DNA from: a virus
Lineage: Duplodnaviria > Heunggongvirae > Uroviricota > Caudoviricetes
Virus record (IMG/VR): IMGVR_UViG_2839610755_000002
Length of the DNA: 64,000 nt
Strand: one strand, 5' to 3'
Below the pieces are notes generated by a model. That model did not search any database and was not told where the DNA came from. It saw only the letters and a program-made list of their open reading frames with translations. Both the position numbers and the translations under genes were made by a program. Below are positions 12,201-30,021 of this stretch, piece by piece. Each line of letters opens with the position of its first letter. Position 1 is the stretch's first letter.

Positions 12201-15147
12201 TCGTTTCCTGCCGGAGTATGCCGATGCGGTGCAGCAGCTGGCGGACAGTTTGCCTAAACAAGCCACCAGCGAAGACGACGACAGTGATGATTCAATCACG
12301 CAGCAATCGCAATACTCCCTGATAGATAAGGGCGAGTTTATTCAGTTGCAGGTTCCGGAAGCGTTCGAGCAGGAAGTGAATAAGCGCCTGGCCAGGTTTG
12401 GCATTGACGAACAGACCGTAACTCACCCCGTTACGCCCAAATACGCGAAGCTGATTGCCACGCTGAAGGAGTTTTTCCCGGAAGGTAAGCAAATCATCTT
12501 CACCGATGAAAAAACGCAGCACCAGAAGCTCAAGCGCATTATCTGCAATGCTCTTAACCTTGAACCTTCAAAGGTGGGGATCCTGAATGCTCAGACGGTT
12601 GCCGAGGCAGGTAAAACCGGTCAGAAACTGAAAGCTGTTAAACCGCCGAAAGAGCTACCGGATGAACCAACAGATGCGCAGATAGCGAAATACAACGAGC
12701 AAATGGCTCGGTATGACGCCTATATCGCGCAGCAAAATGAAATGTCGTTGGGCGGTCTGGAAAAGATTGCAGCCGACTTCCAGGAGGGCCGGACTCCGAT
12801 CATCATCTGCAACAAAAAGGCAGAGGTGGGTATCAACCTGCATCGAGGAACGACGGATATCCACCACCTGACGTTGCCGTGGACTCCAGCCAGCATCGCA
12901 CAACGTAACGGTCGCGGTGCACGAGTTGGCTCCAACCGTGCAAGCGTTCGCGTTCACTACTACTGCGGCAAGGGGTCTTTCGATGAATACCGACTGAAGA
13001 CGCTGAAGCGTAAAGCAGGCTGGATCTCCGATATCCTCCGTTCAGATAAGTCAGAAATGGAGAACGCCGACGCCAATGACATGATCGAAATGCAGATGTA
13101 TACCGCGAAGGATGACGGCGAACGTCTGGCAATGATGCAGGTTCAAATGGATAAGGCGAAAGCTGCGAAACGCGCTCGCCAGAAAGAACAGGCTACTATC
13201 GACCTTCAGAACTACATCAAGGCGCAGCACGCAGCTGGTGAGGATGTGGAGGTACTTACCGCTGAATTGGAGCGAAGCAAAGCGGAACTTGAAAAGACCA
13301 CCGCCGACGTCGCCAAATTCAAACAGGCGGTAATGGCCAAAGCAGCTGATAACGCAGACTGGAAAGCCCGCTGGGGTAGCGTCCATCACACAGACCGTAT
13401 GTTGTTAGCACAGTATCGCGCGTCGTTGAAAAGCGCCATTCAGCGCAAGGCTAATATCTCTCAGGCCATCTCCCGCTATGAGAAATTATTGAACCGTACT
13501 CAGAAGGCCGCGACGGATATCAAACGCCTGCGCCCGCTGGTGGAGGATGCAATAAATAAAGGCATTCTGGATGTTGATCCTGATCTGGTTAACCATGCGA
13601 ATGAGTTCCTTGTTATCGGCGATCGCTCATGGCGTGTAGGCCAATACTATGATTGTGCCGGTGATATCGTTCGCATTAAGTCGCTGGACTTCGACAGCCA
13701 GCGCGCAGACGTGGAGATCATCTTTACCTTCAAAGGTACCAAATCGGGTAACTGGGATGTGAAGACGCTGGATAAACAGGTTGATGTAACTCCCGATGAA
13801 GATGCTGTTATGCAGAAAATCAGTGGTGGCGTCTCCATCGCCGGGATTAACGACATCATTTCCTGTGACGATTTCTACCGTTTCCAGCAGCGCGGCATGA
13901 TCAAAATCACTGACTCATACGGCGTTCAGACTACAGAGTCAGGCTATAGCATTGATTTTGTTGGTACCTATACGTACCCACTGAAGCATGCGGTTTACCC
14001 GGATCGCCGTGACGGCGCGCTGAAGTCGTCAATTGCAAAATGGGTGCTTGGTATGATGTCGGAAGGGAATAACCGCCAGATCCGTTCGGCAGAAACATTC
14101 CTGGTTGAACTGTTTGGCTCCAATTATGGCGATGTAATCGCGTCATACGGAGATACGCTATCCCCTGAAGCAATTCAGGAGAAAATAGCGGATGCGATCG
14201 CCAGAATGCCGGAAAAAACAAACCAGGGGGCTACTCGTAACGGGGATTCTGAACTTGAGGTCACCAATGCTATTTTCGGTACCAATGAGTTCCGGGCGTC
14301 AGATTATGAGATCACCACAGCACAGTTTGGCACCATTGGCATTTACAGCAATAAAGACGAGATCAAGCAGGCAATGGACGCAGCAAGCGCGCGCATTGCA
14401 GCAGAACGGAAAGCCAATCTGAATCATGCAGTCGCCGCGCTGACTCAATCGTGGGTAACAGCAATCAGGGAGGCCGCCACCACAGGAAAAATCACACCGG
14501 CAATTGCGGATGTCGTAAACGACGGCTCTAAATTTATGGATGCCTATAAAATGGATGCGATGAAGTTGCCATCAGCCTATGGTCAACTCAGCTATCGCAT
14601 GACCTACAACCTGGTATCAATGTTTTCCGACCTTGCCATCCTTGGGCTGGTGGATCTTAACGAGGTTACGCCGGACTTGCTCAGCATGCGCAAGAATCAT
14701 GTGGAGATATTGCAGAGAATTAACACGGTTCTTGCCGGGCGCACCGATGAAGAGAAACAGGCCGACGCTGATCGGATAAACCTGGCCCTTGGCAACATCA
14801 CGGAGGAAGAAATTGCCGCCAGAAACGAGAAACAAGAAGAGTTATCATCAATACAGGGTGATGCCACCAGCATAGCTCAGTCTCTTGGTCTGAATTATCG
14901 CGTATCCACTGCCGACCTGAAGATGATGTACGCACCAAAATTCGCCGCTGGAGAGGTATTTGGGCTTCAGGAGGCGTCCGGCATGAAAGGCGTTCTTTTC
15001 CGTGCTAAAGACGCAATCAAGGAAAAATTCGGCGCTCGCTGGCTGCCAGCGAAGGCGAAGAACAGCGATTTCCCGGGTAACTGGTGGATTATCGAGACAA
15101 AACACAACGTGGCGGACGTTCTGGCCGTCATCCAACAATACGCATAA
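9235..15147 (+). CDS. darB: DarB-like protein, C-terminal fragment (SF2 helicase domain and long C-terminal region)
   Basis: Helicase motif I GFGTGLGKTTTALA and motif II VIADEGHNYRN; 1970 aa; frame is open back to 9193, overlapping the end of the upstream fragment. Confidence 0.75.
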   Translation: MDEGTLESANVLWPTFISGKWFEKDGRRFVHGTQEKGFQGRIEVRADGQIDNLALKAKLIHRFESRIDWSLLDMAEPSPTADVVDEGEMRLINGVWQKYAGGRWIEADAGKELKIDVASYGADSWEALQRNLTTTEGRLGMTFTQMANVRDKYTTSISDDMVQLVDWINSQPEKYRERLYRGAMIGRMLIEYQDMKAAGHSAEQIEQQRLSLVSRLQAEIDRFGNPGRGPIAKLSGSGARAWFAFRGAIKLDGTISDELTGKLVTHDSSASYDSTSYQDILRYLYSDLTRDPIQLDDFRLAFTGELPASDKELLNLLASTPGIAVSPYGGIVPFARATSGDINEIVAPKQEFLATLPDGPVKNNVLNQLAAIEEKRIKTPAENIRFKLNSRWFDRSVILEFLQENGYPDLRYVQSVQLEGDEMVSDTYHGGDGLFVGHRYGVVQRKDKETGEIRYEWDRKSGENATGFPAQLEKYLNGARIGGKDSATANGYREQMALLEDQFNKWLKTHDRYDELVAKYNDVFNSNIPYEHSGDPLGLKGLSGKRQPFDYQNSEVRRLSEDGRGILGFGTGLGKTTTALALEAFNYENGRSTRTAYVVPKAVLENWYYEAKEFLSEEAFSNYLFVGLDVLMDGDQIRQVPVLDENGKPVLGTDGTPVMRDALKLADEATITARMNAIPHSNYRAVVFTKEQYARIPLRDDTVDEHAQDMLYDFVAAGRVASAMDSDSHRKEAARRRVLSEYSDTGTEKAEKYPYFEDMGFDSVIADEGHNYRNSYKNGREASQLAYLPTSAVAQSARDMAIKNAYLMKKNGGRGPVLLTATPVVNTPIDAYNMLSHVLPKEYWQKMGIYGPDDFVKFFGKTRLETVQKISGEVEEKMALVGFENLDALRGIFHRWTTLKTAEDVKDTVEIPELDEHQQDAPLTEEQLAAYEELRQQAEAAAKANNGVTTSVNEDGVIEHEKARPIFSIIRDMDRVCTDMDLYYRRITYRFLPEYADAVQQLADSLPKQATSEDDDSDDSITQQSQYSLIDKGEFIQLQVPEAFEQEVNKRLARFGIDEQTVTHPVTPKYAKLIATLKEFFPEGKQIIFTDEKTQHQKLKRIICNALNLEPSKVGILNAQTVAEAGKTGQKLKAVKPPKELPDEPTDAQIAKYNEQMARYDAYIAQQNEMSLGGLEKIAADFQEGRTPIIICNKKAEVGINLHRGTTDIHHLTLPWTPASIAQRNGRGARVGSNRASVRVHYYCGKGSFDEYRLKTLKRKAGWISDILRSDKSEMENADANDMIEMQMYTAKDDGERLAMMQVQMDKAKAAKRARQKEQATIDLQNYIKAQHAAGEDVEVLTAELERSKAELEKTTADVAKFKQAVMAKAADNADWKARWGSVHHTDRMLLAQYRASLKSAIQRKANISQAISRYEKLLNRTQKAATDIKRLRPLVEDAINKGILDVDPDLVNHANEFLVIGDRSWRVGQYYDCAGDIVRIKSLDFDSQRADVEIIFTFKGTKSGNWDVKTLDKQVDVTPDEDAVMQKISGGVSIAGINDIISCDDFYRFQQRGMIKITDSYGVQTTESGYSIDFVGTYTYPLKHAVYPDRRDGALKSSIAKWVLGMMSEGNNRQIRSAETFLVELFGSNYGDVIASYGDTLSPEAIQEKIADAIARMPEKTNQGATRNGDSELEVTNAIFGTNEFRASDYEITTAQFGTIGIYSNKDEIKQAMDAASARIAAERKANLNHAVAALTQSWVTAIREAATTGKITPAIADVVNDGSKFMDAYKMDAMKLPSAYGQLSYRMTYNLVSMFSDLAILGLVDLNEVTPDLLSMRKNHVEILQRINTVLAGRTDEEKQADADRINLALGNITEEEIAARNEKQEELSSIQGDATSIAQSLGLNYRVSTADLKMMYAPKFAAGEVFGLQEASGMKGVLFRAKDAIKEKFGARWLPAKAKNSDFPGNWWIIETKHNVADVLAVIQQYA

Positions 15148-15180
15148 CAGGAGCGCCCGGTTCGCCGGGCGTCGCATAAT

Positions 15181-15621
15181 ATGGCCACACTATCTGATAC
15201 AATAAAACCGAATAAAACATATCTTGAGGCGGTACTCCGTACAGCGTTGTTAGGAAAGACAGAAGACGAATACGTTGATTTCTTCCTGTCAGGGCTACGC
15301 GGGCGATTACTGAAAAATCCCCGCCTGTACCGCAGCTATGGCCCATACTGGCCGGAAATTAAAAAATTATTACTGGAGCGCGGTTATGGTAATTTGGGTC
15401 GTCTCGTTGACCGTGACGTTCGCAAAATTTACCGTTATGACCGCCCGGCGCTGACGCTCATAGCTGCGACGCTCTACAGCCAGGAGCGTTTTGATAACGG
15501 TCAGATATACTCAGCCTGGCATTTATTGCCAGTGCCTGAAGAAGTTGACGACCAGGACTATGAGTTTGAGTCTTACGATTTGGAAGTTGAAGCCTTAGCA
15601 CAGGCTGGAGAGAAAACTTGA
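15181..15621 (+). CDS. ulx: Ulx-like protein
   Basis: 146-aa ORF directly downstream of darB and upstream of the lxc-like ORF (4-nt overlap); name by P1 synteny only. Confidence 0.5.
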   Translation: MATLSDTIKPNKTYLEAVLRTALLGKTEDEYVDFFLSGLRGRLLKNPRLYRSYGPYWPEIKKLLLERGYGNLGRLVDRDVRKIYRYDRPALTLIAATLYSQERFDNGQIYSAWHLLPVPEEVDDQDYEFESYDLEVEALAQAGEKT

Positions 15622-15866
15622 AAAAGCGATACTACACAGTAAAGCATGGGACGCTACGAGCATTACAAGAGTTTGCTGATAAGCATAACGTTGAGGTGCG
15701 CAGGGAAGGGGGAAGTAAAGCTCTGCGCATGTACCGTCCGGACGGGAAATGGCGTACGGTCGTCGATTTCAAAACTAACAGCGTTCCCCAGGGCGTCCGC
15801 GACCGGGCATTCGAAGAATGGGAGCAGATCATCATAGATAACGCATTGCTCCTGAATGCTGATTGA
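15618..15866 (+). CDS. lxc: Lxc-like small protein (C1 corepressor in P1)
   Basis: 82-aa ORF translationally coupled to the ulx-like gene; name by synteny and size. Confidence 0.5.
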   Translation: MKKRYYTVKHGTLRALQEFADKHNVEVRREGGSKALRMYRPDGKWRTVVDFKTNSVPQGVRDRAFEEWEQIIIDNALLLNAD

Positions 15867-15927
15867 TTTCCTGTTAGGTCACTTTATTTTTTAGAGTGGC
15901 CTAAATTACTCTTAATGAGGATGTGAT

Positions 15928-16878
15928 ATGAATGTTTTTATTGATACAAATCTATATTTAGAATTTTACAGGATGGGTAGAGATAAACTAGATGAGCTGG
16001 ATAAAGTATTTGCCTTACATCAATATGGTCGTTTAAAACTTTGGTTACCAGAGCTTTTAGTGAATGAGTTCTGGAGAAATCGTTCTAAAGTTCTCTCTGA
16101 AACCATAAAGGAAATAACAAAAGATTATAAGCCCGCGCTTCCCCAGATTTTTAGGCAACATGAAAAGCATTCACAATTTAATGATAAGGTTATAGAAGCA
16201 GGTAGGTTAAAGAATGAAATTATTACAGATATCCAGAAATTGTTTAAAGAGGAGGCTTTGGCTGCCGATATTGTAATTAAAAGGATTTTTGATGCAGCAT
16301 CTAAAATAGAGGCTGATGATGAAACAATAGATAAGGGGAAACTTCGATTTGATCTTGGAAACCCGCCAGGCAAAAATAAATCATATGGTGACGCAGTTAA
16401 TTGGGAATGTTTGCTAAAAGCGATACCAGACGGTGAGGATATATATATCATAACTGAAGATGGTGATTATAAAAGTGCCTTTATAAAGGATGATATGAAT
16501 GAATATTTGAAGCATGAGTGGAAAAAAAAGAAAAATTCAGAACCACATATCTATTCCCGCTTATCAGAGTTTATAGGCGAGCACTTTCCTCAAGCTAGTA
16601 ACTTGGTGGAAATGGAAGTTAATCTCACTATAGATGAATTACGACACTCTGGCAGTTTTGCTACAACACATCGAGTTGTAGCAAAATTATTAAAGCTCAC
16701 TCACTTTACACAAGAGCAAATCCTAAAAATAATTGATATTTATTTTGAAAATGATCAGGTTGGTTACATCAAAGATGATGATGATGTGAAACTTCTTGCC
16801 AGAAGACTAATATCATTAGGTGACGAGGATAAAGATCCTGAAGGGATGCTGGAGACATTCCGTGTATTTATTGATTAG
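15928..16878 (+). CDS. PIN-like nuclease-domain protein, AT-rich cargo gene at the P1 res-mod position
   Basis: ATG with GAGGA RBS; N-terminus MNVFIDTN plus spaced acidic residues (LVNEFW, GDAVNW, TEDGDY) fit a PIN-like fold; first 60 nt are about 23% GC (counted by hand), versus GC-richer flanking backbone by eye. Confidence 0.8.
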   Translation: MNVFIDTNLYLEFYRMGRDKLDELDKVFALHQYGRLKLWLPELLVNEFWRNRSKVLSETIKEITKDYKPALPQIFRQHEKHSQFNDKVIEAGRLKNEIITDIQKLFKEEALAADIVIKRIFDAASKIEADDETIDKGKLRFDLGNPPGKNKSYGDAVNWECLLKAIPDGEDIYIITEDGDYKSAFIKDDMNEYLKHEWKKKKNSEPHIYSRLSEFIGEHFPQASNLVEMEVNLTIDELRHSGSFATTHRVVAKLLKLTHFTQEQILKIIDIYFENDQVGYIKDDDDVKLLARRLISLGDEDKDPEGMLETFRVFID

Positions 16879-16884
16879 TATAAT

Positions 16885-16903
16885 GGGCGCATAGTTAGCG
16901 CCC
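16885..16903. terminator. hairpin between convergent PIN-like gene and mat-like gene
   Basis: GGGCGC-ATAGTTA-GCGCCC; weak T tract on either side. Confidence 0.45.
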
Positions 16904-16910
16904 AATAAGT

Positions 16911-17552
16911 TTAAAGATAATTATCTTTACCAGTTAATGAACCTTTAGGCACTTTCCGCGCGGCAATTTCATGAGTAGCTTGAATTATATTCACTAGGGG
17001 ACTTAGTAACGACGTATCCTGATTGGCCTCAACTTCTCCAGCCATTGCCCTGATGTAGTCGGCGCTGGCAACGTTGTTGTATTCCGTCGCAAAGCAACAT
17101 AGTAACGTCAGAACATGTTCTGTCGTTATTTCGCTCCAGTTGATGTTGAAAAATTCATCGCCTTTTTTATCGTGTTCGGAATCGAAGATGCTTTTGTGAA
17201 GGATGTATTTGCCGGATTCCTTGCGCGGTAACTTGATTGCTTTCTGGCGTTCCAGCTCCTTATAAATCTGCATTGCCTCAATTAGTACCGGCCTGCTGTT
17301 CATGAAGGGATCGCGCAACCTTACACGCTGGCCAACTCGACCAGTAATAAAGCTGTTTTCCTCTTCCACCAGCACGATAAAACCCTTTTCCTCTTTTTCT
17401 CGCAATTCGCGCAGCAGCTGGAGTTCCATATCGCGGCGGCGTTCAGGGTAGCTGGTCCGCTCAGCCATTATCAGCTCGTTATTGATCCATGCAGCAGTCA
17501 TTGACGCCGGTTTGCCGACGCTCATCGAAACAACGCATATTTTCTTATCCAT
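16911..17552 (-). CDS. mat: Mat-like protein
   Basis: Start set at MDKKICVV with GGGGG RBS (214 aa); position next to ref matches P1 cre-cra-ref-mat. Confidence 0.45.
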   Translation of the reverse strand: MDKKICVVSMSVGKPASMTAAWINNELIMAERTSYPERRRDMELQLLRELREKEEKGFIVLVEEENSFITGRVGQRVRLRDPFMNSRPVLIEAMQIYKELERQKAIKLPRKESGKYILHKSIFDSEHDKKGDEFFNINWSEITTEHVLTLLCCFATEYNNVASADYIRAMAGEVEANQDTSLLSPLVNIIQATHEIAARKVPKGSLTGKDNYL

Positions 17553-17733
17553 AGCGCCCCCTACAAAAAAGAAAAGCCACCAGCGGCGGCTTAGCAATAC
17601 AACTGAAGGTAGCGCCCGGTACTCAGACTGTGCCGTCCATGGAATATTTGAAAAGGGATCCATCCGTACCGGGCGTGTGATGATTCTGACTGAAGTCACT
17701 TGTCAGTTGTCAATCATTTATCATTAAAAATAA

Positions 17734-17750
17734 TATATTTATTAGTGCAT
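17734..17750 (-). promoter_or_regulatory. C1 operator-like site upstream of mat
   Basis: Minus strand reads ATGCACTAATAAATATA; overlaps ref stop codon. Confidence 0.5.
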
Positions 17751-18302
17751 GATGTTTGCCATCTCATAGGCGTCAGCCAGTAACTCCATCTCTGACTTGT
17801 TCAGCAGGGTGAATTCTTTCTTGCCTCCAACCACACCATCGGCATGAACAGGGACCAGCCAGGGGTATTTTGCTCTTACTTCAGCCGGTGCTGCATGCTG
17901 GTGGTGCCATCTACAAAGTGGCAATTGCTTTTTATGACAACCCGGCGCGGTACGACCGGCGATATGGTGCAGAGACACCTCATTAGATATTACTCCATGC
18001 ATATAGCAGGCAATGCAGGGGAGAGCGCCAAGAGCATTGGCGATGCGCCGTTCCTCCGCCGTTGGTGTTCTCCCCTTCAAGCCACGAGATTTTATTTTTA
18101 CCGCGCTTTTCCGCGTTTTGCTAGCTGGTGGGCGCTCTTTCTGTTTAGCGATACGGCGGTCGATAGTATCCCGCATTTTCTGATATTGAAATTCTCGCCA
18201 GACCGGATCAGCCAACTTCTCCCGTTGCCGAGCGATCGCTCGTTCTCTGGCTGCCTTCTGCCACTTGCGGCACTGTTCAATTTTTTGTTCGATTGTTTTC
18301 AT
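17742..18302 (-). CDS. ref: Ref, HNH-family endonuclease (recombination enhancement function)
   Basis: 186 aa; Cys/His HNH-type motifs (CIACYMHG...LHHIAGR...CRWHH); matches P1 Ref as I recall it. Confidence 0.9.
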   Translation of the reverse strand: MKTIEQKIEQCRKWQKAARERAIARQREKLADPVWREFQYQKMRDTIDRRIAKQKERPPASKTRKSAVKIKSRGLKGRTPTAEERRIANALGALPCIACYMHGVISNEVSLHHIAGRTAPGCHKKQLPLCRWHHQHAAPAEVRAKYPWLVPVHADGVVGGKKEFTLLNKSEMELLADAYEMANIMH

Positions 18303-18308
18303 ATGGTC

Positions 18309-18334
18309 AAAAAAAAGGCGGCCTAATGGCCGCC
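18309..18334 (-). terminator. terminator-like hairpin plus U8 immediately upstream of ref start
   Basis: Minus strand: GGCGGCC-ATTA-GGCCGCC then TTTTTTTT, 6 nt before the ref ATG. Confidence 0.5.
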
Positions 18335-18401
18335 AATGATGTCAAGGAGTGAAGTAATGGCAACGTCTTCGTAGTTGACAAAAACTGCGGCTCAATTATA
18401 T

Positions 18402-18418
18402 CAATTAATTAGAGCAAT
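18402..18418 (-). promoter_or_regulatory. C1 operator upstream of ref
   Basis: Minus strand reads ATTGCTCTAATTAATTG; ref is a known C1-controlled gene in P1. Confidence 0.65.
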
Positions 18419-18549
18419 GATAGATATTTTATTTATCGTGAGTCACATTTTTTCACTTCAGTATCTGTCTGCTATACTCCTTCTTGATTGATTGGATGCG
18501 GAATACAAACCCGCTCTTTTGTGCAGCCTGGCTCCTTGCCAGGCTTTTT

Positions 18550-18861
18550 TTATTTCATCATGGAAGCTGTTAATGCTTTGGACCTTGCTGAACTGATTGA
18601 AAGGACATTGTTAACCTTACCCAAGAGTTCGCCAAACTCAGACATCACTTTAGCAAAACCTCGCCGTGCTTCTTCCTCGGTAGCATTCATCACGAAATGT
18701 TCAGCACTACGCATACTTTTGACAGGAAACGCAACGGATATTGAGTCAATATCAGGCATTCTATCGCTCAGCTTTACAGTGACAATGACGGCTGGCGACT
18801 GAATATTAGTGCTTACAGACAGCACTACATATTTTCCGTCGATGTTGAAATCCTTTCTCAT
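18550..18861 (-). CDS. cra: Cra-like protein
   Basis: 103-aa ORF between cre and ref on the same strand; name by P1 synteny. Confidence 0.5.
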   Translation of the reverse strand: MRKDFNIDGKYVVLSVSTNIQSPAVIVTVKLSDRMPDIDSISVAFPVKSMRSAEHFVMNATEEEARRGFAKVMSEFGELLGKVNNVLSISSARSKALTASMMK

Positions 18862-18877
18862 ATGCCACCATAAATAT

Positions 18878-18894
18878 CAAATAATTAGAGCAAT
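18878..18894 (-). promoter_or_regulatory. C1 operator-like site between cre and cra
   Basis: Minus strand reads ATTGCTCTAATTATTTG. Confidence 0.55.
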
Positions 18895-18911
18895 TTATTA
18901 TACATTGACGG

Positions 18912-19943
18912 CTAATCACCATCTTCCAGCAGGCGCACCATTGCCCCCGTTTCACTATCCAGATTACGGATATAGTTCATGACAATATTTACGTTGGTCC
19001 AGCCACCAGCTTGCATGATCTCCGGTATTGAAACTCCGGCGCGGGCCATATCTCGCGCGGCTCCGACACGGGCACTGTGTCCAGACCAGGCCAGGTACCT
19101 CTGACCAGAGTCATCCTTAGCCCCGTAAATCAATCGGTGAGTTGCTTCAAAAATCCCTTCCAGGGCGCGAGTTGATAGCTGGCTGGTGGATGATGGCGAG
19201 GCAACACCATTTTTTCTGACCCGGCAAAACAAGTAGTTATTCGGATCATCAGCCACACCAGAGACAGAAATCCATCGCTCGACCAGTTTAGTTACCCCCA
19301 GGCTAAGTGCCTTCTCTACACCTGCGGTGCTAACCAGCGTTTTCGTTCTGCCAATATGGATTAACATTCTCCCACCGTCAGTACGTGAGATATCTTTAAC
19401 CCTGATCCTGGCAATTTCGGCTATACGTAACAGGGTGTTATAAGCAATCCCCAGAAATGCCAGATTACGTATATCCTGGCAGCGATCGCTATTTTCCATG
19501 AGTGAACGAACCTGGTCGAAATCAGTGCGTTCGAACGCTAGTGCCTGTTTTGCACGTTCACCGGCATCAACGTTTTCTTTTCGGATCCGCCGCATGACCA
19601 GTGAAACAGCGTTGCTGTCACTTGGTCGTGGCAGCCCGGACCGCCGATGAAGCATGTTTAGCTGGCCCAAATGTTGCTGGATAGTTTTTACTGCCAGACC
19701 GCGCGCCTGAAGATATAGAAGATAATCGCGAACATCTTCAGGTTCTGCGGGAAACCATTTCCGGTTATTCAACTTGCACCAAGCCGCCCATGACCGGCAA
19801 ACGGACAGAAGCATTTTCCAGGTATGCTCAGAAAACGCCTGGCGATCCCTGAACATATCCATCAGGTTCTTGCGAACCTCATCACTCGTTGCCTCGACCG
19901 GCAATGCAGGCAAATTTTGGTGTACGGTCAGTAAATTGGACAT
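18912..19943 (-). CDS. cre: Cre tyrosine recombinase
   Basis: 343 aa beginning MSNLLTVHQNLPALP; matches Cre throughout as I recall it, including the C-terminal catalytic region. Confidence 0.97.
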   Translation of the reverse strand: MSNLLTVHQNLPALPVEATSDEVRKNLMDMFRDRQAFSEHTWKMLLSVCRSWAAWCKLNNRKWFPAEPEDVRDYLLYLQARGLAVKTIQQHLGQLNMLHRRSGLPRPSDSNAVSLVMRRIRKENVDAGERAKQALAFERTDFDQVRSLMENSDRCQDIRNLAFLGIAYNTLLRIAEIARIRVKDISRTDGGRMLIHIGRTKTLVSTAGVEKALSLGVTKLVERWISVSGVADDPNNYLFCRVRKNGVASPSSTSQLSTRALEGIFEATHRLIYGAKDDSGQRYLAWSGHSARVGAARDMARAGVSIPEIMQAGGWTNVNIVMNYIRNLDSETGAMVRLLEDGD

Positions 19944-20352
19944 TTGACACTCAGATAATGGTTTTAAGTAAAGTGTACAGGATCGGCTCTGCCTTTACCT
20001 GTTTATGATTCTCGTCATAGAAACGCCAACGACCGCGACTGCGTTCTATCTTTTCTTCACCGCGCGATAATGACAGTTGACAACTATCACGATCAAACCC
20101 TTTTGCCCGCCAGTAACCACGATTTTTCTCAAGCTCAAGATGAGTGGACCTTTAGCAGCTGAATATCCCATTTTTCACCTCTGATTGATTGGTGGTGCTA
20201 AGTGCGCTACGCGAAATCTGGAGCACTAACACTGCCAACATTTCGCAGATTTTACGTAGCGCAACCTTGATCAAATGATCACTATTTGACCTGATAAGGT
20301 ATTGAACTGTATGGATTTACAGGTAAATTAATCATGTTCAATAACCCTTAAG

Positions 20353-20386
20353 ATAACTTCGTATAATGTATGCTATACGAAGTTAT
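20353..20386. other. loxP: loxP recombination site
   Basis: Exact 34-bp ATAACTTCGTATA-ATGTATGC-TATACGAAGTTAT, about 410 bp upstream of cre. Confidence 0.97.
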
Positions 20387-20430
20387 CAGATCCGAAGAGG
20401 AGTTTACGTCCAGCTGCGCACAAAAATCAA

Positions 20431-20446
20431 GAATTATTAGAGCAAT
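20431..20446 (-). promoter_or_regulatory. C1 operator-like site in immC region
   Basis: Minus strand reads ATTGCTCTAATAATTC. Confidence 0.55.
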
Positions 20447-20512
20447 AAATTTAGAGAGAAAAATCCCACTCCACCAGCTAAAAACTGGATTGTTTTTCAT
20501 AGTTGTTTGACA

Positions 20513-20529
20513 ATTGCTCTAATAAATTA
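20513..20529 (+). promoter_or_regulatory. C1 operator (Op99-like) upstream of coi/c1
   Basis: ATTGCTCTAATAAATTA, 16/17 to consensus. Confidence 0.65.
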
Positions 20530-20767
20530 TAGTTTTGCCGTCGTTACGTAATACGACTTTGGATTCACTATTTAATGTGTCTTCAGCGTTGTAGAGCGGC
20601 TCAGAAGGAAATGAGCAAACAGGGAAACCTTATACAACGGCATTACAGCTATGCATTGCTCATCTTACACACAGCGCAATGTTGTTAGATTACCCCAGCA
20701 TGGATCATGGGTGAAACAGTAGGTCAGAGCTTCAGGCTCTGTGTTGTCAATACAGTGAGGCATAATT

Positions 20768-20977
20768 ATGGCTTTCATTCAACCAACCATCGACGACGTT
20801 AGACATTGCTCTAACGCTTTATCTGTAGACCCTGCCGAAACCGACGCTGCCCGCGCCATTGCTGAACACTACTCAAAGATATCCAATCAGGAGTACCGCA
20901 TCACCCAAGACGACCTGGATGACCTCACTGACACAATCGAATATCTCATGGCAACTAACCAGTTAGACTCACAATAA
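20768..20977 (+). CDS. coi: Coi, C1 inactivator
   Basis: 69-aa ORF immediately upstream of c1; size and position as in P1. Confidence 0.85.
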   Translation: MAFIQPTIDDVRHCSNALSVDPAETDAARAIAEHYSKISNQEYRITQDDLDDLTDTIEYLMATNQLDSQ

Positions 20978-20994
20978 ATGCACTAATAAATCTA
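20978..20994 (+). promoter_or_regulatory. operator-like variant between coi and c1
   Basis: ATGCACTAATAAATCTA (variant core GCACTAATAAAT). Confidence 0.4.
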
Positions 20995-21087
20995 TTATTT
21001 TTGTTTGATCCCTCTATAATATAGGTCAGTAATGACCGGTTTTCTCAGCCGGGCGTTATTGACCATGTCAATTCTGGAGGAGGATCA

Positions 21088-21939
21088 ATGATAAATTATG
21101 TCTACGGCGAACAACTGTACCAGGAGTTCGTCAGCTTCAGGGATCTCTTTCTAAAAAAAGCTGTTGCACGCGCCCAACACGTTGATACAGCCAGCGACGG
21201 TCGTCCTGTACGCCCGGTTGTCGTTCTACCGTTCAAAGAAACTGACAGCATTCAGGCTGAAATTGATAAATGGACTTTAATGGCGCGGGAACTGGAACAG
21301 TACCCAGACCTCAATATCCCAAAGACTATTTTATATCCAGTGCCTAACATCCTTCGCGGTGTGCGTAAGGTTACAACTTATCAGACAGAAGCTGTGAACA
21401 GCGTCAACATGACCGCTGGCCGCATTATTCATCTGATTGATAAGGACATTCGCATCCAAAAAAGCGCGGGGATCAATGAGCACAGTGCGAAATACATAGA
21501 GAACCTGGAAGCAACAAAAGAGCTAATGAAGCAGTACCCGGAGGATGAAAAATTCCGTATGCGCGTACACGGCTTTAGCGAAACAATGCTGCGCGTCCAC
21601 TACATTTCCAGTAGCCCTAACTACAATGATGGTAAATCAGTTAGTTACCATGTGCCACTGTGTGGCGTGTTTATCTGCGATGAAACTCTCCGTGATGGAA
21701 TTATCATCAACGGTGAATTCGAAAAAGCAAAATTTAGCCTTTATGACTCCATAGAACCGATCATCTGCGACCGCTGGCCGCAAGCAAAAATATATCGCCT
21801 GGCAGATATTGAAAATGTAAAAAAACAAATTGCCATCACTCGCGAAGAGAAAAAGGTTAAGTCAGCCGCATCAGTTACGCGCAGCCGTAAAACCAAGAAG
21901 GGGCAGCCAGTAAACGACACCCCCGAAAGCGCGCAATAA
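21088..21939 (+). CDS. c1: C1 repressor of lysis
   Basis: 283 aa beginning MINYVYGEQLYQEF; GGAGGAGG RBS; matches P1 C1 as I recall it. Confidence 0.95.
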   Translation: MINYVYGEQLYQEFVSFRDLFLKKAVARAQHVDTASDGRPVRPVVVLPFKETDSIQAEIDKWTLMARELEQYPDLNIPKTILYPVPNILRGVRKVTTYQTEAVNSVNMTAGRIIHLIDKDIRIQKSAGINEHSAKYIENLEATKELMKQYPEDEKFRMRVHGFSETMLRVHYISSSPNYNDGKSVSYHVPLCGVFICDETLRDGIIINGEFEKAKFSLYDSIEPIICDRWPQAKIYRLADIENVKKQIAITREEKKVKSAASVTRSRKTKKGQPVNDTPESAQ

Positions 21940-21944
21940 ATTAT

Positions 21945-21962
21945 GCCCGGCATCAACCGGGC
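21945..21962. terminator. hairpin after c1, shared with the 3' end of the antirepressor-like gene
   Basis: GCCCGG-CATCAA-CCGGGC; same hairpin recurs at 50366-50383. Confidence 0.55.
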
Positions 21963-21971
21963 ATTCTTCCA

Positions 21972-23089
21972 TTATTCAGCTGCCACCGGTTTTAACAAGC
22001 CAGCATCGAGCAGTTTACGCGTCAACCACTGCTGGCCTTTACCCGTTAATTGAGGCGTCAACCGTATCTGGTAGCCATCTTCATCATCCAGCACCACTTC
22101 TTTCACCGTGAAATACCCCGCGTTGATGTACTGCTGGAACGGCACATTTTTACGTCCACCGGACGCTATCAGGATGCCGTTCTCCCGTAACCAGACAAAC
22201 AGCGCGTTTTGCTTAAGTCCAACAACCTTTGCAAAATTCCCAATCAGGATCCCTTTAGCTACTGATACCCGGTCGGCAAAATCGACTTTAGGAGCGGCGG
22301 CCACCAGCTGCTGATTTAGCTGGTGGGCTTTCTGTTCCAGAAGTTGCTTTTGTTCAGCCAGTTCGGCAGCCAGGCGTAGGGCTTCAGGAAGCGTCTGGGG
22401 GATTGCGATCGGTTGCTGTTCTTTTTGTCGGAAGTAGCTGTCTTCCAGTTTTTCAAAGAATGCCCATGCCTGATCGGTTTCGAGCATTTTAGCGTGGCGG
22501 GCTGCGCCGCGTTCTGTCCAGAGGGGAGTGAGCGAACATTGCGAGCAATTTTTACAGAGTAGTTTAAAGCTACTCTGTGCTTCAACTCGCGCAATGATTC
22601 TCCTTCAACTTTGAAAAAGTGCTTCCCTTCAACAAAGCGTACTTTGTTCTCATGATGATTTTGGCGAATACGGATTGTTTCTGTCCCATACCCTCTAGCA
22701 AGAGTCTCGGTTGTCACTACACGCACTCCCTGCCATTCCAGAACGGGAATTTCATCAGACTGATTCTGAACAACCACCAGCTCCGATTCCTGAACTGAAG
22801 GTGCATGAATTTTTTCTGATTTAACGTTAGTTGCTTTCATTCTGTGTGCCTCCTTGCGTGCTTCGGCTGCGACGGTTGCGTAATTCAGATGACCCTGTTC
22901 GAGCAGGTATTCGCGGATATCAGACAACAGGATACGGTGAACCGCGTTCTTGTCCTTTCTCCGGTAAAGTTGTTTGGTGATCATGAAGTAGTTGGCAATA
23001 ACGCCTGGTATATCCCTGGTACTGATACAGGCAGTGTGCTGTTCAATTGCCTCGATCATCTCTTCACGGGTGACTAATGACGTTCTCAT
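21972..23089 (-). pseudogene. antirepressor-like gene copy A (ORF6N/Bro-N-like middle, ANT/KilAC-like C-terminus), split by frameshift
   Basis: Two overlapping ORFs (22316-23089 and 21972-22487) in different frames; the C-terminal about 130 aa are near-identical to the intact 344-aa copy at 50391-51425; shift lies near a G4 run at about 22523-22526. Confidence 0.6.
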
Positions 23090-23625
23090 AGTCCCTCCTG
23101 AGCAGAAGCGTTAACAGGGAGGCACCAGTAACTGAGAGAATTGCGTGAATCAGTGGAAAAACGGGCAGAGAAAATACATGGGGCGTCAGGAAGCTGAGAG
23201 CGGGCCTCATCTTCTGTTGGTGCAATAACGAAGTGATAGTGACGTTTTTGGCAGGAGTAAAAGCGCCAGATAAATTCAGGATGAGTTGGGGTAGGGATAG
23301 TAGCCATATTGGCAGCCTCCTTAGACGTTGGTATGTAACCACCGCAGAAGAGACCAATCTTGCTGGCGGTGGACTGTACGGAGTTGGCCTTACTGGCGTC
23401 CAAGGTAACCAGCCTACCCGAAGGTAGCCCCATACAGCCCACCATTGTAGAGGTGTGCGTGTACGCCGATACAAAAAAAGACGCGAGCGGCGTCTGTATC
23501 GCCTTAGACTTAAGCGGGAGGCCAATCCCGGCACCCGTTTTAATGAGGTGCCTGATAAGCATAAACCGAAAATGCCTCAAGGCGCAAGAGGTCAGGTTCA
23601 ATGTAACATCGGTAGCTAAAAAACA

Positions 23626-23642
23626 CAATTTATTAGAGCAAA
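23626..23642 (-). promoter_or_regulatory. C1 operator-like site about 0.5 kb upstream of antirepressor-like copy A
   Basis: Minus strand reads TTGCTCTAATAAATTGT. Confidence 0.5.
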
Positions 23643-23645
23643 TAT

Positions 23646-25130
23646 TCATTCATTAAGCCATGCCAGAGCTTCATCAACCTGCGCTTCGTCTTCGACGCTA
23701 AGCACTTCATCCTGGGGAACATAATCAGCCAGCATAGCGAAACAATATGTATCCCAATGGTCTGGTGAGTGCAGGTTGAGTTTTTTCTTCATATCCTCCT
23801 TACTCATCACTTTCCATTGACCTGCGGAGTTAATCCCTACAGGGATTTTCGACGCTTCCTCAATAGTTTCATTACCCTTATCCAGTCTCATACGACCAGA
23901 TTTTACGGCCTCTGCGGCTTGAACGTTGGCATAAGCACGTTTATCAAAGTACAGGCTCTTATCTTCACGGCTATGCATCTTTTTACCCCAGCGTATACGC
24001 TGTACGGTAATACCATAATACTCGTACATCAGATCCGCCGTTGCTTTACCCAGGCCATCGCCGTCTATCGCTATGGTGATATTTGGGAATCGCTCAGGAT
24101 TACATTCTGCGAAAATTTTGGCGGCAAGCTGCGTTTCTGTAACGTCTGTGTATTCCAGCATTCGATAGTTGATTACACGGCGTTTATTTCGCTGGCCGGA
24201 CACCATCATGATATTGATAACGGACTTATCCCGTCCCGTACCACCAGCAACGTCCACACATGCAAGCCAGCCCCATCCTTTTGCAATCTTGACTTTCCGC
24301 CGCGTTGCACGTTCAACCTCATCACGTCCAAGAAGGAAGCCATCCTGTGATTTAGGGAATAGGCCGCGTACCTTAATCATGTACATAGGGTTATCGCGCC
24401 CGCCGTACTCCGCCAGCTTCATTTTGATAAATGCTGGCGTTACCAGCGGTGATTCCTCACTGTTAAGCGTGATCGCCGTATAAACGCCATCAGGGTTACC
24501 AGGACGCTTGGCCAGTTTATGGTGAGTATCGTAGAAATAGCCGCTTGGGCGTGTAGGCTGTGACAGTAATAAGATGCGGTTATCCTGTCCGGTAAGAGCA
24601 CCGGTGATGATACCGAAAGCTCTATCACTGACACCGGAGGCTTCATCGATAATATACAGAAGATGATCTGCGTGTTCACCGGCGAGAGCTTCTTCACTTC
24701 CCAGACGAAAGCCCTTCGGTACTACAGTCCATACACCTTTACCAGTAACCTCATAGAAAGCGGTTTCTGTCAGAACAAAATAATCAGCAAGCCATGGGAA
24801 ACGGCTGGTGGCAGTAGCCCAGTTTATCTTGATGTACTTGAATATACCGGTCATTACCTGCTGAATTTTGTTCGCAACGATAATGGCTCGGGCACCGGGA
24901 TACATGATTATGAACAACATGATCATGATAGAAGTCATGTCTGATTTCCCGGTACCGTGACCAGACGAAACAGATGTCTTGCTACCCTGTTCCTGCACAG
25001 ACTCAATAATCAGATCCTGCTGCCAGGTAGGTGTTTTGCCGAACAAAACATCAGCGGCCGCAATCCAGTCATAACGATATAGCGCCACCAGCTCGCGCCA
25101 ACGTGGATCCGTTACGCAACTTCTGGCCAT
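23646..25130 (-). CDS. pacB: terminase large subunit (pacase)
   Basis: 494 aa; Walker [10 protein letters not shown] and Walker [12 protein letters not shown]; adjacent to pacA. Confidence 0.9.
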
Positions 25131-26323
25131 TAATCATCATCCCCGTATAGCTTGCGGGTAACTTCTTCGTCTTCCTCCTCGTCTTCGTCCAGGTCTTGTT
25201 CCAGCCATGGGTCGTTTGATGCACCTTCAGTATCAACATCTCCATAACCGCCTGTATCAACGATATCGGCGATTTCTTCCCTACGCTGCTCAATCCACAA
25301 TGCGGCATCCGCGCGGCGGTTGGCGGCCCGTTCTCGCGCAACTTTGTCCAGATCTTCAAGAGAAGGGCCACCGACGGCTGTTTGCCTTTCCTCATCATCG
25401 GTATTGGTCTTAGGAGCACGCAGATCGGCTTTGATTTGCTCCAGCATCAGGGGCGGCACTTTCCCGCCATGCGCCTCGATGAATTCAGCTGCTTCCAGCA
25501 CTGACCAGTTATTTTCACGCTTTCGTTCGTATGCCAGCTTAACAATGCCAGCTTGCCCCATAGATAAAGCGTGCTTTTCCGCCTCCCGGCTTTCTTTTCG
25601 ATAGTTATTCCGGATGCTGTAAATGGTGTTGATCAGGCTGCTTATCTGCGCGGAACAGCTGTTTAGCATGCTCGCGATACGATATTCAGGCGGAGTCCCT
25701 TCATCATCGTCTTTTTGCTGATCGCGCATTTCCTGCACCAGACGAATACACGTATCCCTGGCGTTCTCCAGCATAAGGAGATGAGAAAGAGACTTTTCCA
25801 GAAGAGTGGTTTCCAGAACATCGGCCCCGGACCGACGCAACATAGCGCGCGCGGCCTTCCGCGCTTCAACGTTATCTATCAGGTAATCGCCAGCTTCGAA
25901 TTCAAAGCGTTCACCATCATCATCCAGGGTGTCGCGTTCCAGGCGATCACGTAAGGTCCGGTGGGCGCGGGTGATCACGTCATGATCATCAGAACGATCA
26001 TTTATGCGCTTATTTTGGCGCTTCGCATTCTCGACTGCGGCACTGACAACGGCATTAACCCTTTGTTTTTCCGCTATTTCAGCCGCAATGTGATTACCTG
26101 CATGTTGATCATTAGAGTGATCAATGATCATGCTTTTTAGTGGCTTCCTGACTGGCTTATTTGGCTTGCGGCTGTCCGCTGTCCTGGTGTCTTCTTTGAA
26201 GGCACGGAGATAACGACGTGCAGTATTAGGGTTAAGATTAAACTCGGCGGCATACTGTGCGATGGTGTAACCACCATCTCGCGCCAGGCGAGCAAAATTC
26301 TTCTTGTGATCGTCCCAGGTCAC
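25130..26323 (-). CDS. pacA: terminase small subunit (pac-recognition subunit)
   Basis: 397 aa; contains the pac hexamer clusters within its coding sequence, as in P1. Confidence 0.85.
25944..26131. other. pac: pac packaging site (4+3 TGATCA/G hexamers with GATC Dam sites)
   Basis: Four hexamers at about 25945-26001 and three at 26106-26129 inside pacA. Confidence 0.75.
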
Positions 26324-26408
26324 TTATGCTTCCTTTCGTAAAAACTCTTTTTGACGCGAGGGTAACGAAAGTCACATGTCAAAAGGCCCGGAACGGGCAA
26401 GCAATCAA

Positions 26409-26861
26409 TCAGATACGTGCGGATGTGGCATTACCGTAATGACGGTGCTGACGGGCCACCTTATTGAAAAGTTGACGCGCCATTACCCAAGGCTGGTGCT
26501 CCCGGCGTTCCTTTTCGTCCTGCGTCATATAGAGTTCGTTCTGGAGTTTTTCATCAAACCGGCGCGGAGCGCGGCTACGGCGAAAGAATTCAGGATTCAG
26601 AGAGTGGATCTGAAATCTACGTGGGCGTGTACTGTCATCAATCAAAACAGACGAATACTTAGACACAGCGATAGCCTTTAAGCGCAGATAAACATCGCGC
26701 TTATCGACATCCAGATGCGGGTATTCCTTTTCAAGAATTGCTGCGAGTTCTTTCGCTGATAGAAGAGATTTAGTGCGGATCATGTAATCCGCAATCTCGT
26801 ACGATGTTATTCGTGAGTGATTTATTTCCATGAAGTGGCGTCCCTGCCAGTTAAGTAACAT
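26409..26861 (-). CDS. lpa: late promoter activator (Lpa-like)
   Basis: 150-aa ORF upstream of pacA on the same strand with a C1 operator just upstream; name by synteny. Confidence 0.55.
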   Translation of the reverse strand: MLLNWQGRHFMEINHSRITSYEIADYMIRTKSLLSAKELAAILEKEYPHLDVDKRDVYLRLKAIAVSKYSSVLIDDSTRPRRFQIHSLNPEFFRRSRAPRRFDEKLQNELYMTQDEKERREHQPWVMARQLFNKVARQHRHYGNATSARI

Positions 26862-26931
26862 CCTGTCACCTACTGATTAGCCCATGTCAACTAATCAACG
26901 TGGAATATAATACCCTCGATTAAAGAAATAG

Positions 26932-26948
26932 CAATACATTAGAGCAAT
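26932..26948 (-). promoter_or_regulatory. C1 operator-like site upstream of lpa
   Basis: Minus strand reads ATTGCTCTAATGTATTG. Confidence 0.5.
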
Positions 26949-26949
26949 T

Positions 26950-27993
26950 TTATCTAACGCTCGACGAGTGACTTGTGATAGCGCCGACTCCAAGCGCGTA
27001 ATCAAAGAACAATCGTTGATGCATCGCCAGCCTGCCGTGCGTCTTCTCCCAATTATCGCGGTCACGCTCAATATCACGCTGGCATGACTGGCACAGAGGA
27101 ATTGCGTAAATGTCATGCGCGCATAATCGACTATGACGAACGATATAAGGCGTAATGCGAGCGCCAGCTCCCGCAGCTCCACATCCACAGCACGGACGGG
27201 AAGCAACAAAGTCCATGTACTCGGGTAATTTTAGCGATTGCAGTTTTGGTATTTTGAAATGCGCCATGCCAGGGTCGGAGTCAACATCCACAGGGCATAC
27301 TTTTGCACGCATCGGCGCGGCGCGTTCTTCCATCATCTGAACATATGCTGTAGCACGATCGTCGTACGGGCGAATATCCGCCTCTTTCAAAGGTCCGCTA
27401 TCCTGCGGAGCAGCCTTCATCTTATTTATTGATATGCGGCAAACTTCTTCCGGCATCAGGTGCATCATGTTGCGCATGAAAGCCCACCAGCACAGTTCCT
27501 GAATACTTAAATCATGGCCATCTGAAAGCCCCATTTCCTGACGGGCGACATCCAGTATCCAGTTAACGCGATTATTATGCAGCGTTTCTTTCAGCTCATT
27601 AAAACCACGCATCCGGTAATGGTTATCGTGATGCCAGCACAACAACACCGCGCTATTGTCTCGTTCTGCGTGGACAATATGGTTGTCACACCAGCTACGA
27701 TCTGCGGCCTGGCATTGCCCCTCTTTCCTGCGCAACCACGCCACCAGCGCGTCAATTCCACCAATACGGCGAAACAGTTCATCGCTGTTAAAAAACGGCT
27801 GCAACGCCTCATTTGTTGCCATAGTTTGCTCGGAAACAACGAGGCCGTCGTCCATGTGCTCGATTAACTCACGCGGCACCGGCTCCATAATAAATTTACG
27901 GCCAGCCTCCACCAGCTTTCTGACTTCCTGATCCACTTTGAATGTGGCGACGCCAAGCTCTTTTTGTACAAAGGGAGTAATTACGGCTTTCAC
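26950..27993 (-). CDS. pdcB: PdcB-like protein (Cys-rich C-terminal region)
   Basis: 347-aa ORF, second gene downstream of doc; Cys cluster CCGCG...CAHD...CQSCQ; name by position. Confidence 0.45.
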
Positions 27994-28020
27994 ATCACAC
28001 CTTTCATCACTGATTGGGCT

Positions 28021-28221
28021 TTATCTGCTGCCCGGCATTCTCTGTTTAAGCACAACCATTTCCTGACGGCATAACACAGCAATAGCAGTCCTGGCTCTAA
28101 TTTGCTTACCAACCAGGTATTGCTTTACCTCGCGGCGACTCACGCCATCAAGAAGCATCTTTAACGCTTCACGGGACAATTTGTTGTATTTGCGTGCCAT
28201 TAATCTACTCCGCAGAACCAT
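28021..28221 (-). CDS. pdcA: PdcA-like small protein
   Basis: 66-aa ORF overlapping doc stop; name by position. Confidence 0.4.
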
Positions 28222-28585
28222 ACAATCTACGTAACGTGGCGGCGACAGAAGATACAGATATCTCGCCAGTCGCAGCCCCTACGGTAAGGTCTGCCAGTTC
28301 AGGTGAATCAAATACCTGCACCCCGTTACGGCGTAGAAATAACAGCGCACTGTTTAGCGCGGTACGCTTATTGGCATCATTGAATATATGCCCTCTCGCC
28401 GTAGCCACCAGGTAGGTGGCGGAGACTTCGAAAAGGTCGGTGATCTCTTCGTAGGCAACTCTGGCCTGAACTCTCCCGATAATGGCCTCTGCCCTACCCG
28501 GATCTGACATTCCCGGCAGGCCGCCGTAGCGGCTTATATTCGCATCATGAAGCGCAATAAGTTCTTCCGGTGATATATGCCTCAT
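28205..28585 (-). CDS. doc: Doc toxin (Fic-fold kinase)
   Basis: 126 aa with Fic motif [10 protein letters not shown]; directly downstream of phd. Confidence 0.95.
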
Positions 28586-28806
28586 TATCGGTTAACCAGT
28601 TCCTTGTTGGTGGAGTCCAGGGTGTCAAACAGGGATGCAAATTCAGCATCCAGCGCCGCTTTTTTGTAGGCTTCGAAAGTAGCCTTGCTGACAATTACTG
28701 CTGGCTCACGGCCTCTGCGGGTGATTTCAACCTCTTCCCCGGCTTCAACATTGTTAAGCACTTCAGAAAGGTTGCCACGCGCGGTACGGAAGTTAATGGA
28801 TTGCAT
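28585..28806 (-). CDS. phd: Phd antitoxin
   Basis: 73 aa from [13 protein letters not shown]; stop overlaps doc start. Confidence 0.95.
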
Positions 28807-28878
28807 AAACACCTCGTGTACTCGTTATGTGTACACAATTATAAACTTCACAGGCATAAAGCACCAGCACTTTGCAGC

Positions 28879-29268
28879 TTAAATGATCGGACAATCATCA
28901 AACTCCCCACATCGGGCATCATTGATGACATGAGTGATCACACCAAAAACAGCATTACTACCCGTGTAACCATCGTCATCTACTGGTAACGCCTCTTTCT
29001 TCCCGGTGCTTAAATCCTCCAGGTGCTGGCGCGGATACTTTCGGTATCTCTTTATGCGATATTCACCCTCCATAGCGCAGACAAGCAGCGAACCATCAAC
29101 CGGAGTAAGCGAGGAATCAACCACCAGCAAAGCACCCTGCAATATTCCCTCACGGTGATGGCTGTCTGCCGCCCGCATGAAGTAGGTCGCTGATGGATGC
29201 CTGATTAGTTGCTGATCAAGAGAAATTCTGCTTTCAACATAATCCGCCGCAGGAGAAGGGAAGCCCAT
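28879..29268 (-). CDS. humD: HumD, UmuD'-like translesion-synthesis accessory protein
   Basis: 129 aa; UmuD-like core (LLVVDSSLTPVDGSLLVCAMEGEYRIKRY). Confidence 0.85.
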   Translation of the reverse strand: MGFPSPAADYVESRISLDQQLIRHPSATYFMRAADSHHREGILQGALLVVDSSLTPVDGSLLVCAMEGEYRIKRYRKYPRQHLEDLSTGKKEALPVDDDGYTGSNAVFGVITHVINDARCGEFDDCPII

Positions 29269-29287
29269 AGCGTTTTCACCTCAATAA

Positions 29288-29307
29288 TACTGTTCATTTA
29301 CACAGTA
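29288..29307. promoter_or_regulatory. LexA (SOS) box in the humD/lxr divergent promoter region
   Basis: TACTGT-TCATTTAC-ACAGTA fits CTGT-N8-ACAG. Confidence 0.7.
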
Positions 29308-29442
29308 TACATTAAAGAGACACCTTTGGTGCAAACGCGTTATGTACATCAACCACCGCAGATGATTTTGTGCGCTTTGCTACTATTCATCACCAACGGA
29401 TCAGCGTAACCTCATTGCCAATCAGTTAATAAGGAATTAGCT

Positions 29443-30015
29443 ATGCCTAATCGCATTCCTCTCGATCCTGTATTGCCCAAAAATTTTGACTGCACTCCTA
29501 ACGAGAGACGCTCTAAAGCTCAGCTGGACGCCTGGTGGGACCATCCCTATGGGGTTACAGAACATGACGGGAAAATTGTTGTTTATTGTCTGAATGGTGG
29601 CGCGTGGGACCGTCCATCCGTGCTGGGTTTGGCAAATAACTATGATGAAGCCTGTGAACTTGCCGAAAGACAGCAGGCTAGATGGGTAAAAACGCGGTCA
29701 CAGCCGATATTTATGTACTCACAGGAACCTCCATTTGTGCTGGCGAGAATGCCGCAGCGACCGGATCATCAACAAGAAATTGTTGCTGAATTTTCCTCAA
29801 TGGATGAGATGAATCTCTTCTCATTAAAGCAGGAAGAAAGGGATCGCGTCGAAGTGTCTCCAACTCTCGACCACAACCGGATGAACCTGGCCCAACTCGC
29901 CTGGTACAGCAAAGAATTGGAGATGTCTATTGCCCGGCTTGAAAACGAAAAAGCCGCTATCCAAGCCCAGCATGAAGCTGTCATTGCCAGGATACGAGAA
30001 GTTCAAAACGGTTAA
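29443..30015 (+). CDS. lxr: Lxr-like protein
   Basis: 190-aa ORF divergent from humD across the LexA box; name by position. Confidence 0.5.
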   Translation: MPNRIPLDPVLPKNFDCTPNERRSKAQLDAWWDHPYGVTEHDGKIVVYCLNGGAWDRPSVLGLANNYDEACELAERQQARWVKTRSQPIFMYSQEPPFVLARMPQRPDHQQEIVAEFSSMDEMNLFSLKQEERDRVEVSPTLDHNRMNLAQLAWYSKELEMSIARLENEKAAIQAQHEAVIARIREVQNG

Positions 30016-30021
30016 CTACCG

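Follow-up and report, generated by a model that had tools for sequence, protein, structure and literature searches.

A one-nucleotide deletion, delA565, has split one of the antirepressor genes of a P1-like phage-plasmid into two open reading frames (ORFs), and we consider it very probable, at roughly 0.88, that this is a case of ordinary pseudogenisation, in which an inherited deletion breaks the redundant antirepressor gene of a second immI-type module. The gene, here called ant copy A, lies on the minus strand at 21972..23089 of the window, by which we mean the whole analyzed stretch of 64,000 nucleotides (IMG/VR record IMGVR_UViG_2839610755_000002). It consists of two halves, an N-terminal ORF of 257 aa (22316..23089) and a C-terminal ORF of 171 aa (21972..22487), which together encode an ORF6N domain (PF10543) and a KilAC domain (PF03374). 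The frameshift as such is already known, as the public RefSeq annotation produced by PGAP flags the gene as a pseudogene with the note 'frameshifted'.

The intact counterpart of ant copy A is found in most P1-like plasmids as a single ORF of 1119 nt encoding 372 residues. The intact records are annotated as 'phage antirepressor KilAC domain-containing protein', and their corresponding 1161-nt region matches the window at 99.9% identity and is one base longer. Alignment to one such allele (L002:2512-3630; 99.9% identity) reveals delA565 as the only difference, the lost base being A565 of the gene, in codon Thr189. On the plus strand, the window reads GGGG at 22523..22526 where the intact allele reads GGG-T-G, with the T missing between 22525 and 22526. 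On the minus strand, the intact allele reads CTCACCCTC and the window CTC-CCCTC, so that the junction becomes CTCCCCTC; in the wider alignment, CGCTCACTCACCCTCTGG of the intact allele is set against CGCTCACTC-CCCTCTGG of the window. The preliminary description of this DNA had proposed the G4 run at about 22523-22526 as the site of an indel. The alignment agrees with that location, but not with a change in homopolymer length: the intact allele has only C3 and the lost A had a C on both sides, so the four-base run was made by the deletion and the lesion is neither a contraction nor an expansion of a homopolymer. Comparison with copy B, the second antirepressor gene in the window, and with the intact relatives bears out the proposal that a single gene has been split by a 1-nt indel at this site. 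The delA565 haplotype shows 0 other differences from the intact allele over 1119 nt, and the same haplotype is present in records L001, L003, L005, and L007-L011. Since no secondary mutations distinguish it from the intact allele, delA565 is by this sequence measure young, and with 0 SNPs the absence of further mutations in the C-terminal ORF is uninformative.

Residues 1-188 of the N-terminal ORF match the intact 372-aa protein and are followed by a 69-residue tail rich in S, K, N, and P. This tail had been described as low-complexity and out-of-frame; it is indeed out of frame, but its entropy of 3.76 bits makes the first label only loosely apt. The two ORFs overlap by 172 nt, and a -1 shift leads from the first into the frame of the second. 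The C-terminal ORF encodes a complete KilAC (ANT) domain, and its start codon corresponds to the internal Met202 of the intact protein. As had been noted, the conserved C-terminal frame begins before this annotated Met: it is open for another 39 codons upstream, and the homologous residues LWTERGAARHAK are encoded there. The break was, however, misplaced when it was said to fall between the two domains. Pfam assigns ORF6N to residues 116-202 and ANT/KilAC to residues 260-361 of the intact protein, and codon 189 therefore lies inside ORF6N. Correspondingly, the ORF6N match of the 257-aa ORF covers positions 3-62 of the 86-position profile and is cut at 62; what is removed is the conserved C-terminal part of the domain (LWTERGAARHAKM), not a linker. 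ORF6N and ANT, which are joined in one polypeptide in the intact protein, thus reside on separate ORFs in the window, the former in truncated form.

The deletion is not private to the window. When an 81-nt stretch centered on the junction was used as a query, 7 of the 130 complete E. coli genomes containing this segment gave an exact match; the others either have the extra base or differ elsewhere. The carriers are F1273 (O157:H7; beef, USA), TX 376-2 (O157:H7; cattle, USA), EH2252 (human, Belgium; plasmid name pO26_EH2252_2), EH031 (human), UTAK-13 (veal), OkiPb01717 (bovine faeces, Japan), and CEC12044 (O103:H2; human, Japan), and they span several laboratories and serotypes as well as US, Japanese, and European sources. 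The junction is also exact in 4 of the 83 PLSDB plasmid records with full coverage. In the protein collection, the exact 257-aa product occurs on 75 contigs, as well as in 99 index blocks that derive from NCBI drafts and Logan run assemblies, and the intact 372-aa protein on at least 968 contigs. Moreover, delA565 is the sole difference from the intact allele in the drafts GCA_002924065 and GCA_000948745 and in the Logan assemblies SRR35288147, SRR8625930, and SRR11593170. That the Logan contigs come from short reads is deduced from their size of ~11 kb and from their ends, which fall at the repeat shared with copy B. The carrier plasmids diverge from each other elsewhere, with a coverage of 75-86% and an identity of 97.6-98.9% over 24 kb, so that the plasmids and hosts harboring the allele are distinct. 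A literature search returned no information on the sequencing platform of TX 376-2 and F1273. We infer that the deletion arose once and subsequently spread among plasmids of cattle-associated and Shiga-toxin-producing E. coli (STEC).

The broken gene is the last in a module that is otherwise intact. The window derives from a P1-like phage-plasmid that is in essence pTX376-2 / pF1273-3 of E. coli O157:H7, with positions 1..46529 and 47839..51313 identical to pTX376-2 (NZ_CP038288, strain TX 376-2) except for 2 mismatches, and it also contains phd/doc, tRNAs, and other P1 genes. A second C4 RNA / icd / ant module (module A) is located between pacB and c1. Reading along the minus strand from the pacB homologue (23646..25130), it comprises a C1 operator-like site (TTTGCTCTAATAAATTG, 23626..23642; a 17-mer that departs from the P1 consensus at 2 positions and lies immediately downstream of pacB), an isrK-like leader RNA (23474..23551; Rfam RF01394, 60.8 bits, above the gathering score of 50) that ends in a terminator-like hairpin with a T-run (23495..23479), and a C4 antisense RNA (23362..23449; RF01695, 75.9 bits, above the gathering score of 45). 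These are followed by a 73-aa icd-like gene (23086..23307; WP_000201261.1 in relatives), the stop codon of which overlaps the start of ant (ATGA, with the ant ATG at 23089). A consensus scan of the minus strand called no sigma-70 promoter. Ant copy A converges with the plus-strand c1 gene (21088..21939; 283 aa, annotated as phage repressor protein C1), and a terminator-like hairpin separates the two (21943..21964). By analogy with P1, C1 is presumed to be the target of the antirepressor. Further along lies a cre-type integrase gene (18912..19943, minus strand).

Two side observations concern this region. Across the whole window, 18 sites match the P1 C1 operator consensus ATTGCTCTAATAAATTT with at most 3 mismatches, against 0.22 expected, and such matches are found upstream of each C4 module (23626..23642 and 51944..51976). 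In addition, a 187-aa ORF (23086..23649, minus strand) and a PGAP pseudo-CDS named 'ash family protein' (23332..23649, minus strand; Pfam Phage_ASH) both overlie the C4 and isrK-like RNA genes; a protein call at this position is probably an over-prediction on RNA-coding sequence.

Module B, the canonical immI module, is situated 28 kb away and includes a C4 RNA (51691..51776), a1/b1 targets (51844..51896; Rfam c4-a1b1), and ant copy B (50391..51425), all on the minus strand. Copy B is intact and of the P1 Ant1 type, with 344 aa. The two copies have icd and the first 85 codons of ant in common, with 96.7% DNA identity over 450 nt, and the N-terminal 85 aa are identical. Their KilAC domains are 87% identical at the DNA level, whereas the central domain, in which the deletion falls, is wholly different. 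The C4 RNA of module A has diverged from those of module B and of P1.

Module A resembles immI of P1 in several respects. The P1 operon is annotated as the Oc4 operator, the a1/b1 target sites, c4, the a2/b2 target sites, icd, and ant1/ant2, and module A has the same order of C1 operator-like site, leader, C4 RNA, 73-aa icd-like ORF, and ant; its operator-like site is placed like Op51/Oc4, and the icd stop overlaps the ant start as it does with ant1. According to the P1 annotation (L096), ant1 spans 808..1851 and ant2 1057..1851, such that ant2 starts at codon 84 of ant1. Copy A has an in-frame internal ATG at the matching position (Met84, 22838..22840, minus strand), with AAGGAGG 8 nt upstream, which may serve as the equivalent start. 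However, module A occupies the stretch between pacB and c1 and is not adjacent to sim/kilA, its C4 is diverged, its leader matches isrK instead of c4-a1b1, its ant gene contains a central ORF6N that is absent from copy B, and in the window the frameshift separates KilAC from the N-terminal part. The isrK family comprises Salmonella Hfq-binding sRNAs. That an isrK match takes the place upstream of C4 in module A (23474..23551) that c4-a1b1 takes in module B (51844..51896) suggests that the isrK family represents a variant C4 target leader.

An insertion of two short ORFs and an antirepressor gene between pacB and c1 has previously been described for RCS47 and pTZ20_1P (Venturini et al. 2019, PMC6906374). 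Locus and gene are the same as here, with RCS47 being 96.9% identical over 88% of the query, but those copies were described as intact, in contrast to the delA565 allele in the window. Other antirepressors combine an N-terminal Bro/ORF6N-like domain with a C-terminal Ant/KilA-type domain, for example Gp07 of Phi11, although the likeness of the latter to the P1-like protein is distant and confined to the domain level. The growth-inhibitory effect of Phi11 Gp07 is reported to be kept by its C-terminal domain (PMC5944126).

Lesions of the same gene other than delA565 are also found. They comprise delC590 in a C3 run of vB_EcoM-673R5 (a record of a computationally defined phage-like plasmid, so that this lesion may itself be an error), C619T, which converts Gln207 to a stop codon in CP042894, CP034786, AP025210, and CP142679 (L012-L014 and L099), a 4-nt insertion after nt 107 (L075), a 10-nt deletion of nt 749-758 (L083), and the loss of everything after nt 814 in CP040069, where the C-terminus has been replaced and the site adjoins a RelE/Phd toxin-antitoxin pair. 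Including delA565, this amounts to six independent lesions spread over nt 107-814, with most copies of the gene being intact. Given the five other independent lesions, the gene appears from the sequence record to be dispensable, and the pattern fits a dispensable accessory gene with occasional decay rather than a selected split architecture. A truncation hot spot at codons 189-207 (nt 565, 590, and 619) was considered and is not claimed, because the wider sample added the lesions at nt 107, 749-758, and 814; with 3 of the 6 lesions within 55 nt, a rough scan-statistic estimate gives p ~0.13. In a spread sample of 34 full-length records, disruption was confirmed for about 3. Only this rough fraction is given because the PLSDB entry 'none under the match', which we tried as a flag for pseudogenes, proved unreliable: CP080128 and CP060916 carry intact annotated genes in RefSeq. 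In CP059910, PGAP splits the ant gene, yet translation shows an intact reading frame.

As a separate observation, some single P1-like contigs in the viral collection have two ant genes of the ORF6N type, which belong to different subtypes and share 83-94% identity with the intact query. These are 646311924_000007 (L035/L081), 651053023_000001 (L028/L067), and 2713896909_000009 (L039/L071), and they indicate that ORF6N-type antirepressors can occur twice per element.

It is improbable that the deletion is anything other than simple loss, be it through interference with the copy-B complex by shortened products, here termed Ant1' and Ant2', or through -1 slippage yielding traces of full-length Ant. 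If either version were true, delA565 would be an attenuated or dominant-negative regulatory allele and not a dead gene, and in the case of interference it would stabilize the P1-like plasmid prophage in cattle-associated and Shiga-toxin-producing E. coli. We first consider a functional split, in which Ant1' (257 aa), Ant2' (174 aa), and/or a separate 171-aa KilAC protein are produced and act in regulation, for instance as dominant-negative partners of the copy-B Ant1/Ant2 complex through the common 85-aa N-terminus. The identity of these 85 residues in copies A and B, the annotation of P1, by which its Ant1 and Ant2 work as a complex, the intact and Pfam-complete KilAC ORF, and the persistence of the allele across several serotypes are all compatible with such a role. 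The details of the locus nevertheless make it a poor candidate. No Shine-Dalgarno sequence is present upstream of Met202 of the KilAC ORF, where the sequence reads ccgccacgctaaaATG, and the Met202 ATG sits within the out-of-frame tail translated from the N-terminal ORF, so that independent expression of the C-terminal ORF is unlikely. ORF6N is truncated in the N-terminal fragment and missing from the C-terminal one, and the other independent lesions are of various kinds and are scattered in position (nt 107 to 814), which fits decay.

Leaky recoding, which has still less in its favor, would involve -1 slippage of the P-site tRNA-Pro on the newly formed C_CCC_U, giving a little full-length Ant that carries T189P and is attenuated. 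The codon in the -1 frame is likewise CCC, which would allow perfect re-pairing of the tRNA, and a -1 shift is exactly what the KilAC frame needs. However, the site (CUC CCC UCU) contains no slippery heptamer of the form X_XXY_YYZ, and the 50 nt downstream of it do not fold more stably than shuffled sequences (z = +1.09), which leaves the site with no downstream stimulatory structure. Furthermore, only one haplotype shows the shift, and none of the diverged homologues does. Among the IMG/VR homologues with a full start (64-100% identity), 70 of 77 are uninterrupted ORFs of 344-372 aa, and a programmed frameshift was accordingly rejected, as the diverged homologues are single ORFs and the site has neither a heptamer nor a downstream structure.

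Least credible of all is that the true plasmid is intact and its consensus has lost one base, since, although the window reads a G4/C4 run at the site and contains other frameshifted genes, one of which (DarB-like) has its junction at a C6 run, the missing A stood between two C residues, with no change in run length, and the identical allele recurs in the seven complete genomes, two drafts, three Logan run assemblies, and 75 contigs overall described above. A run-length change private to one assembly, which would be expected of a homopolymer error, is not what is seen at delA565, and the alignment together with the independent assemblies rules out a homopolymer slip. The anticipation that accurate reads might restore a single ORF is likewise not borne out, because the same allele is found in independent genomes, drafts, and Logan assemblies.

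The preliminary description had counted this lesion as the third homopolymer-associated frameshift in the window and had considered a systematic assembly error a real possibility. Fragments of two other frameshifted genes are also widespread, with counts that range from 66 to at least 1000 contigs, and a systematic error in assembly does not account for the lesions. The first of these genes, at 8379..15147 on the plus strand, encodes a DarB-like N-6 DNA methylase/helicase of 2255 aa when intact and is marked 'frameshifted' by PGAP. Its junction lies near 9223..9242, at the C6 run (9227..9232), and is thus a true homopolymer site, unlike the ant lesion; the split is nonetheless a very widespread allele, with the N-terminal 287-aa fragment on at least 1000 contigs and the C-terminal 1970-aa fragment on 66. 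The second, at 37503..38223 on the minus strand, is a PGAP 'frameshifted' hypothetical protein of 229-236 aa when intact. Its junction at ~37948..37958 has no obvious homopolymer, and its 101-aa fragment occurs on 845 contigs, the other fragment (154 aa) being absent from the protein collection.

Two further features of the window are recorded here. A small ORF labelled 'creatininase' (19951..20171, minus strand), which adjoins the cre-type integrase, is likewise marked 'frameshifted' by PGAP. Relative to pTX376-2, positions 46530..47838 constitute a 1309-bp insertion sequence with overlapping ORFs at 46584..46910 and 46907..47797 and an Rfam ALIL pseudoknot at 46865..46981 (121.5 bits). We take this pseudoknot to mark an IS3-family element with a programmed -1 frameshift, and the element may be one of the frameshifts counted previously.

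Pseudogenisation of the redundant gene would thus proceed along the following lines. The intact gene encodes a 372-aa antirepressor made up of the 85-aa N-terminus common to P1-type Ant1, ORF6N, and KilAC, and A565 in codon 189 would have been lost in vivo in the carrier lineage. Translation from Met1 and from Met84 would then run into the 69 out-of-frame codons and end at the stop at 22316, yielding truncated products that lack the last ORF6N helix and the whole of KilAC. The KilAC-encoding remainder, which has no ribosome-binding site of its own, would probably go untranslated. Module A would no longer be a source of antirepressor, with module B (c4-icd-ant1/2) remaining intact. Antirepressor function has in all likelihood been lost as a result, while the 188-residue native N-terminal part, which contains the 85 residues found unchanged in copy B, may retain a residual or altered function.

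The ant-A frameshift implies no new mechanism. For quality control, its value is that the frameshifts of the window represent real alleles and not poor assembly, so that the remaining sequence of the window can be trusted. The delA565 allele is in addition a handy lineage marker for P1-like plasmids in O157:H7, O103:H2, and other cattle-associated or Shiga-toxin-producing E. coli. For the biology of the family, the finding means that the second antirepressor module of P1-like phage-plasmids appears to be dispensable and to have been inactivated repeatedly.
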